The notes beneath the pieces are model-generated. The model did not search any database. It saw nothing but the letters and a program-made list of their open reading frames with translations, and was not told the DNA's origin. From the NCBI RefSeq assembly GCF_056746865.1, contig NZ_CM163382.1: 64,000 bases of DNA, one strand, 5' to 3'. Position numbers and translations under genes: made by a program. Positions 2,096 to 3,300 of the stretch are shown here, piece by piece. Position 1 is the first letter of the stretch, and every line of letters begins with the position of its first letter.

Positions 2096-3300
2096 CCTTC
2101 TAAGAGTCAAGCAGTTATCGGGGTGCTGTTGATCTGCCTGTTTTGATTACGCAGTAATGTATAAACTTCGTGTGAGATATAGCGCTTCAGGCTGCGTATT
2201 GTTTCCATTTTTGTATGCCCTTCCGCTACTCGTCTGGCGACATATTCCTTCGTTTTATCGTCAGTTCGCAAACGTCCGATGGAAATGATGTGAAGTGCAC
2301 TATTTGCAGCACGATCTCCACCCCGGTTAAGTCGATAACGATTCGTTTTTCCTGAAGATACGGGAACAGGGCTGACACCACACAGTGCCGCAAAACCTGA
2401 TTCTGATCTTAATCGTTGGGGATTGTCTCCGGCAGTGATCAGCAACTGTGAAGCGCTTTCGTATCCAATAGCATTACGTTTAATCAGTGCAGGTGCCAGC
2501 TCATCCACAATTGCCGCAATCATAACATCCAAATCAGCGATTTCGTCATGTAACTCGAGATAGCGTCGGGCAAGGGACTTTAATGAAATACGATAAACGT
2601 TGGTAACATTGAGCTATTCACTGGCATCAGGCCGCTAGGATCTCAGAGTCCTGATGAGCTGCATGCGCGTCATATTTCTGAGCTGTTCACGTAATTCATC
2701 CGGGGCAGAGATAATATTGGAATGGTTAATCTGGAGAGCGACTCTGCGGGCTGATATTGCTGTTTTTCGGCAAGTTTTTAATACCCGCAGAGACTCAATC
2801 ATACCATTGCGCGTTTTGGGTGTGACAGTTCTTATTCCGGAGCATGCGGCGTGAGCGGCACATTCAGCATCAATCGTGTCACTTTTACCCCGTTTGCGTC
2901 GCTCCATCCGATCTGGCACAGCCACCTCAAGAACTTCTAACCCGGCATTCTGTAAATAGCGAAGCAGACCTGATCCATAGGTGCCTGTACACTCAACACC
3001 AATTCGCTTTAATGCCCCAAACGAAACCATCCATGCCAGCATCTGCCGGTAACCTTGCCGTGTTGTGGAGAAAAACGGGGGCCCCAGAACTTTATTGTTC
3101 TGATCTACGACAGCGGCAACGTGCAGATCTTTATGTATATCCACGCCACCCACAACAGCGGTTTCCGTAACTTTACCTGCCATAACAGAGCTCCTGTGAG
3201 GAAACAGAGTTGAATCTCCAGACAGATAACCCGGACAGGACAGTAACGAGACAAGACGTCAGGCCCTTCTTGAGTCACGCGCATCGGTGAGGAGACGCCT
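2080..3300 (-). mobile_element. IS110-family element inserted into the istB gene of an IS21-family element (boundaries approximate)
   Basis: IS110-type transposase reading frame 2107-3183; IstB homology of the flanking ORF is lost near 3300-3335. Confidence 0.45.
2107..3183 (-). pseudogene. IS110-family transposase with in-frame TAG stop
   Basis: ORFs 2635-3183 and 2107-2532 are in the same frame (both start coordinates divisible by 3); the codon at 2635-2637 is TAG. C-terminal part carries the IS110-type motif region. Confidence 0.65.

Follow-up and report, generated by a model that had tools for sequence, protein, structure and literature searches.

A truncated copy of ISEc21 among fragments of other insertion sequences

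The 64,000-nucleotide stretch of DNA analysed here (the window) carries a disrupted transposase gene of the IS110 family, which lies between fragments of other insertion sequences (Table 1). An earlier note on this DNA had described a transposase gene at 2107-3183, split into two open reading frames (ORFs) in a shared frame; both the coordinates and the shared frame were borne out, with the gene on the minus strand. It was aligned with two intact copies of ISEc21, one chromosomal (L003) and one carried on a plasmid (L004), and with a relative that is 90% identical (L005). The closest intact genes, with 96.8-97.3% identity over the coding sequence (CDS), are annotated by PGAP as ‘IS110-like element ISEc21 family transposase’. 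When the ISEc21 derived from L003 was compared with the window by blastn, a single ungapped match was obtained, with 97.09% identity over 1236 bp, in which bp 139-1374 of the element correspond to window positions 3324-2089. By the ISfinder convention, isoforms of an element share at least 95% nucleotide identity. Over bp 139-1374 the remnant exceeds this value, as does its CDS, at 97.2-97.3% against copies assigned by PGAP to the ISEc21 family; it is not a complete element, bp 1-138 being absent with the truncated istB gene (istB′) in their place. The reference copy in L003 measures 1374 bp, of which 279 bp are upstream non-coding region and 18 bp form a tail past the stop codon; the same length is implied by the 1574-bp synthetic fragment with 100-bp flanks on either side that was used in the published work on ISEc21 (Siddiquee et al. 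2024, Nat Commun 15:5235, PMC11187229).

The two ends of the remnant differ in their state of preservation. The right terminus and its junction with a fragment of an IS3-family transposase gene are intact, the element ending in GGGCGTCCA and being followed directly by GGGCAGTCATTATACG, a flank that fits the ISEc21 target. On the left, homology to ISEc21 stops at 3322-3324, and homology to IS21-family istB, at 99-100% identity, extends from 3322 onward. The two homologies overlap by approximately 3 bp, and this boundary probably represents a deletion or illegitimate-recombination junction; neither element was cleanly inserted there. The junction also creates a chimeric ORF, which runs from istB′ into the non-coding part of ISEc21; its predicted product is 248 aa long, with the last ~70 residues specified by sequence that is non-coding in ISEc21.

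Table 1. Features of the ISEc21 remnant and of the adjoining genes (window positions)
Feature	Position	Strand	Remarks
Feature adjoining the right terminus	1947-2088	-	target identity from PMC11187229
ISEc21 remnant	2089-3324	-	bp 139-1374 of the 1374-bp element; sole copy in the window
Right-end tail of ISEc21	2089-2106	-	18 bp past the stop codon
ISEc21 transposase pseudogene	2107-3183	-	ATG at 3183 to TGA at 2107-2109; 359 codons counting the terminal TGA
N-terminal ORF	3183-2635	-	182 aa, ATG start
C-terminal ORF	2532-2107	-	141 aa, TTG start
First TAG	2635-2637	-	codon 183; plus-strand letters ‘cta’
Second TAG	2614-2616	-	codon 190; six sense codons past the first TAG
Kept part of upstream non-coding region	3184-3324	-	ISEc21 bp 139-279; 9 of 59 nt of minimal seekRNA left
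Chimeric ORF, istB′ to ISEc21 non-coding region	3105-3851	-	crosses the junction at 3322-3324 and overlaps the transposase ATG
istB′, truncated, IS21 family	3322-3851	-	lacks its C-terminus; fused to ISEc21 bp 139, ~3 bp overlap
istA of the same IS21-family element	3848-5020	-	390 aa, intact; co-oriented with the pseudogene

Two amber codons in the transposase gene

The assignment to the IS110 family, also made in the earlier note, was confirmed by three profile matches. The DEDD/RuvC-like domain PF01548 (DEDD_Tnp_IS110) is matched by residues 13-147 of the window transposase (68.7 bits against a cut-off of 29, E = 6.2e-19), and PF02371 (Transposase_20) by residues 238-315 of the conceptual read-through translation (44.7 bits against a cut-off of 21.3, E = 1.7e-11), and the NCBIfam equivalog model NF033542, ‘IS110 family RNA-guided transposase’, scores 180.1 bits against a cut-off of 140. 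The domains of the family are thus present, and the uninterrupted reading frame is absent, with TAG at codons 183 and 190. The Transposase_20 domain, which bears a conserved serine, lies downstream of both TAGs and is therefore untranslated.

The earlier note had reported a single TAG and an open frame over the gap of about 100 nt between the two ORFs. An in-frame TAG does occur at the position given, codon 183, but it is not the only one, and the second TAG, at codon 190, contradicts the open frame. Translated in one frame, the gene reads ...LIRTLRS*RPDASE*LNVTNVY..., and the start of the C-terminal ORF at a TTG is a mechanical assignment of the ORF listing. Compared with ISEc21 the frame is free of insertions and deletions, the gene differing by the two internal TAGs and by 16 other replacements. 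In the codon-wise alignment, codon 183 is TGG (Trp) in L003, L004, L005 and the orthologous copy of strain SMS-3-5 described below; codon 190 is TAC (Tyr) in L003, L004 and L005, and TAG in the SMS-3-5 ortholog. The observation is thus corrected to two amber codons combined with a 5′ truncation of the element. Both the element, ISEc21, and its state, that of an annotated pseudogene, were known already: in all genomes inspected, PGAP labels the gene ‘IS110 family transposase, pseudo, internal stop’.

Loss of the left end and of the guide RNA

ISEc21 is an experimentally dissected IS110-type element, and its published requirements allow the consequences of the truncation to be specified (Siddiquee et al. 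2024, PMC11187229). Its upstream non-coding region encodes a seekRNA that guides the transposase; deletion of bp 20-150 abolishes circle formation, and the deletion is complemented by bp 8-179 supplied in trans (PMC11187229). A 58-nt seekRNA corresponding to bp 89-147, a span of 59 positions, is the minimal form that suffices (PMC11187229, Supplementary Fig. 13 legend). A mini-IS with 29 bp from the left end and 16 bp from the right end, flanked on each side by 15 bp of target, is sufficient for movement; removal of the target bases on both flanks abolishes circle formation as well as transposition, and the transposase promoter is formed when the two ends join in the circle (PMC11187229). The window copy, in lacking bp 1-138, is deprived of its left terminus and of the target flank on that side, as well as of half of the junction promoter. 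Of the 59 positions of the minimal seekRNA, 50 are missing; a sequence scan located the hexamer CTGCCC, complementary to GGGCAG in the target, at bp 123-128, within the missing part. Given these published requirements, the absence of bp 1-138 leaves the remnant unable to excise or transpose; the element of the window is neither mobile nor coding.

Because Rfam contains no family that detects the seekRNA, the loss of the guide RNA is read from the published coordinates. When the window and an intact ISEc21 locus were scanned at gathering thresholds, no bridge RNA or seekRNA family was returned, the only matches being ALIL pseudoknots and pieces of group II introns. The intact 279-nt non-coding region folds with a z-score of -2.9, a value that is uninformative by itself. 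As for the target, loci L003 (1176-3137), L004 (1176-3455) and L005 (1176-3038) agree with the published one, the right flank of the 90% relative (ET358) being slightly different, GGGAAGTCAGTATAC. A search of the window for unoccupied ISEc21 targets (15 + 15 bp), with as many as 5 mismatches allowed, gave none.

Compared with ISEc21, the remnant retains the 358-codon transposase frame with the DEDD and Transposase_20 domains and 97.09% DNA identity, but lacks bp 1-138 and carries two nonsense and 16 missense changes. The 358-aa transposase of ISEc21 is of intermediate length relative to the 315-330 aa of the IS621 branch (PMC11187229). The parent element ISEc21 has the family architecture of IS621, in which a non-coding guide RNA is encoded upstream of a transposase with a DEDD RuvC-like domain and a Tnp domain bearing a serine; the guide RNA is gone from the window copy. 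IS621 and the bridge-RNA recombinases of the IS110 group have reportedly been the subject of work by Durrant and colleagues and by Hiraizumi and colleagues in 2024.

Relaxed selection on the transposase gene

The changes that accumulated in the window copy display the pattern of a gene evolving without constraint. At 16 positions at which ISEc21 and the 90% relative agree, the window copy has a different amino acid: T16I, T35P, Q36P, T53V, T88A, A89V, F114C, I153N, G181R, R191L, E232A, A301S, A328T, C331S, R338H and I354T. Together with the two nonsense changes, the window lineage has 18 non-synonymous and 5 synonymous changes (dN/dS of about 1.2, with 809 non-synonymous and 265 synonymous sites in the CDS), as opposed to 9 non-synonymous and 60 synonymous differences (dN/dS of about 0.05) between the ISEc21 copies and the 90% relative (Fisher p = 1.4e-8 for the two sets of counts). 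It is this difference in dN/dS that indicates the absence of constraint on the transposase gene.

A single locus in E. coli and the order of decay

The window is chromosomal DNA of E. coli, and many complete genomes of this species match it at 100% over positions 1900-3400. A 277-bp probe over the junction of ISEc21 and istB′ was covered in exactly 55 records, representing 55 genomes. The same 55 records, at 99.4-100% identity, were recovered with an 885-bp probe extending from the stop region to the junction, all of them chromosomal and with one copy each; the next-best match to this probe was ordinary ISEc21 (85% coverage, 97.3% identity). With a 100-bp probe centred on the stops, 51 records matched at 100% and four at 99.0%, followed at 96.0% by ISEc21 with sense codons, and no allele fell between 99% and 96% identity. 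Of 5,426 complete genomes of E. coli, 55 thus have the allele, each in single copy at the one chromosomal locus, and in these probe searches the amber allele is confined to this single truncated locus. The earlier note had reasoned that a sense codon in other copies, combined with uniqueness of the TAG copy, would identify a plain pseudogene, and this is the situation revealed by the comparison of copies. A simple nonsense mutation, the first of the two explanations offered there, describes the gene correctly as a pseudogene but understates its decay, which comprises two stops, a neutral accumulation of 16 missense changes, and the loss of 138 bp at the left end, guide RNA included.

Strain SMS-3-5 (NC_010498.1, 3229241-3231725; L008, CDS at 332-1408 on the minus strand) is among the four records with 99.0% identity; its orthologous dead ISEc21 copy is bounded by the same junctions, with one difference from the window in 300 bp upstream and one in 250 bp downstream. 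In this copy codons 183 and 190 read TGG and TAG, respectively, and codon 147 is a TGA private to it. It has most of the window missense changes in common, with the ancestral Thr at codon 35 and an intermediate Ala at codon 53. LH50-c, E41 and VTB96933v, the other records at 99.0%, probably carry the SMS-3-5 allele, as judged from their identical identity values. Since SMS-3-5 has TGG at codon 183 but shares both the TAG at codon 190 and the junction, the stop at codon 183 is the later one and appeared when the gene had already been interrupted and truncated. The order of decay can accordingly be read from the differing extra stops of the two lineages: truncation and Y190* came first, W183* later. 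The independent gain of a different extra stop in a sister lineage is what neutral decay would be expected to produce, and it is incompatible with a conserved recoding signal.

These results are consistent with the following course of events. A copy of ISEc21 would have inserted into the codons for the DDE motif of an IS3-family transposase gene, the constant target of this element, and a later rearrangement, presumably a deletion, would have joined bp 139 of ISEc21 to the middle of an IS21-family istB, removing the left terminus and its target flank along with nearly the whole of the seekRNA, a bridge-type guide RNA. With selection gone, the transposase gene then drifted, gaining first Y190* and later, in the lineage of the window and among the 18 replacement changes, W183*, so that full-length transposase is presumably no longer made. 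Collectively, the feature is almost certainly a dead, immobile remnant of ISEc21, that is, a plain pseudogene.

Alternatives to a plain pseudogene

Persistence of the locus in 55 genomes might be taken to mean that the fragments are separately functional, the 182-aa N-terminal RuvC-like (DEDD) part acting in trans as an inhibitor of incoming ISEc21, or the two halves reassembling. In favour of this reading, the N-terminal ORF retains its ATG and its DEDD domain match, and the co-oriented istA-istB′ could supply transcription, read-through from these genes into the pseudogene being possible. We nevertheless consider it very improbable. The N-terminal part taken by itself is unconstrained, with 9 replacement and 2 silent changes in the window lineage, and SMS-3-5 shortens this ORF further, at codon 147; it is on the relaxed constraint and this additional truncation that a split functional gene was rejected. 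As for the C-terminal ORF, its TTG start is mechanical and no Shine-Dalgarno sequence was seen in the upstream bases, and a promoter and terminator scan of window positions 1900-5300 returned no more sites than were found in shuffled sequence. Hitch-hiking with a conserved island segment, at 99.4-100% identity, accounts for the persistence of the locus in the 55 genomes. Still less probable, in our estimation, is that the remnant has been kept for a product, either the 182-aa RuvC-like fragment or a trace read-through protein made from the upstream IS21 promoter, which would serve as a dominant-negative brake on incoming ISEc21-type elements. None of the analyses made yielded evidence for a function of the remnant.

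The earlier note had also raised an element whose expression depends on suppression or readthrough. Genuine cases are known, including amber mutants in supE and supF hosts and the coat protein of phage Q-beta, for which readthrough is programmed, and the window gene resembles them in having an in-frame UAG within an otherwise continuous frame. Both of its stops are TAG and each is followed by C, a relatively leaky termination context in E. coli, and trace readthrough may occur at these codons. However, there is hardly any chance that transposase is made by amber suppression or programmed readthrough of TAG as a means of regulating transposition. Unlike in readthrough genes, the stop is conserved neither in functional copies nor even in orthologous ones, two tandem stops would have to be read through serially, and the sequence downstream has drifted neutrally, the 7 replacement and 3 silent changes past codon 190 in the window lineage giving no sign of purifying selection. 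Functional copies of ISEc21 encode Trp (TGG) and Tyr (TAC) at the two positions, the SMS-3-5 ortholog lacks the TAG of codon 183 and has TGA elsewhere, and the TAG allele is limited to one truncated locus, all of which contradicts the suggestion. Even a full-length protein would still be deprived of the seekRNA and the left end.

Searches for suppressor tRNAs (CUA anticodon) gave numbers for E. coli as a population, separate from the 55 carriers: a query for tyrT with the supF anticodon had no exact match among 5,441 E. coli records, and glnV with the supE anticodon was matched exactly in 155 records, of which the ten listed are for the most part named laboratory derivatives of K-12, such as C600, DH5alpha, J53, DH1 and RR1. 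ARAGORN detected no tRNA genes in the 64-kb window. Suppression is in any case moot: given the two UAGs in tandem, the 16 missense changes and the lack of both left end and guide RNA, it would restore no working element. A false lead is hereby removed: there is no recoding or suppression-dependent transposase at this locus. Finally, beyond the general possibility of such errors, nothing favours the view that the gene is intact and its stops stem from errors of sequencing or assembly, a view which has practically no probability and is excluded by replication, the two-TAG sequence being 100% identical in 51 independent complete assemblies and the 16 missense changes and the truncation being likewise common to other genomes.

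The surrounding genomic island

The plain pseudogene lies in what amounts to a graveyard of insertion sequences within a variable genomic island, containing fragments of IS3, IS21, IS66, IS1, IS256 and ISL3 elements together with pieces of group II introns; in related strains it also includes the aerobactin and sit genes. The window is colinear with strain XDL only over positions 1-14123. No complete E. coli genome spans window positions 14000-38999 as a whole, the best covering 90% in three pieces. From 14124 to 64000 the island is a mosaic, which includes PhoX, fragments of asrABC, cytochrome b562, a type I restriction-modification system, IS2, IS1 and ISEc12. On the plus strand, Rfam matches to group II introns occur, in order, at 12886-12972 (Intron_gpII domain V/VI, 64 bits) and 56022-56161 (group-II-D1D4-4, 67 bits), and in strain XDL the ltrA reverse transcriptase gene near the intron match contains an internal stop.

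ALIL frameshift pseudoknots are located on the minus strand at 42563-42679, 46222-46338 and 51537-51652. The three sites mark near-identical IS3-family (IS1203-like) copies of ~1.31 kb, at ~41705-43014, ~45361-46673 and ~50679-51987, respectively; with up to 5 mismatches allowed over the 30-bp site, no ISEc21 target lies in any of these copies. Just past the position corresponding to the left edge of the window, strain XDL carries two further IS110-family pseudogenes (L001, 692-1662 and 2691-3162), which are frameshifted and contain internal stops, and both adjoin fragments of IS3-family or integrase-core genes. This arrangement suggests repeated insertions of ISEc21-type elements into IS3 elements of the island, all of which have since decayed.
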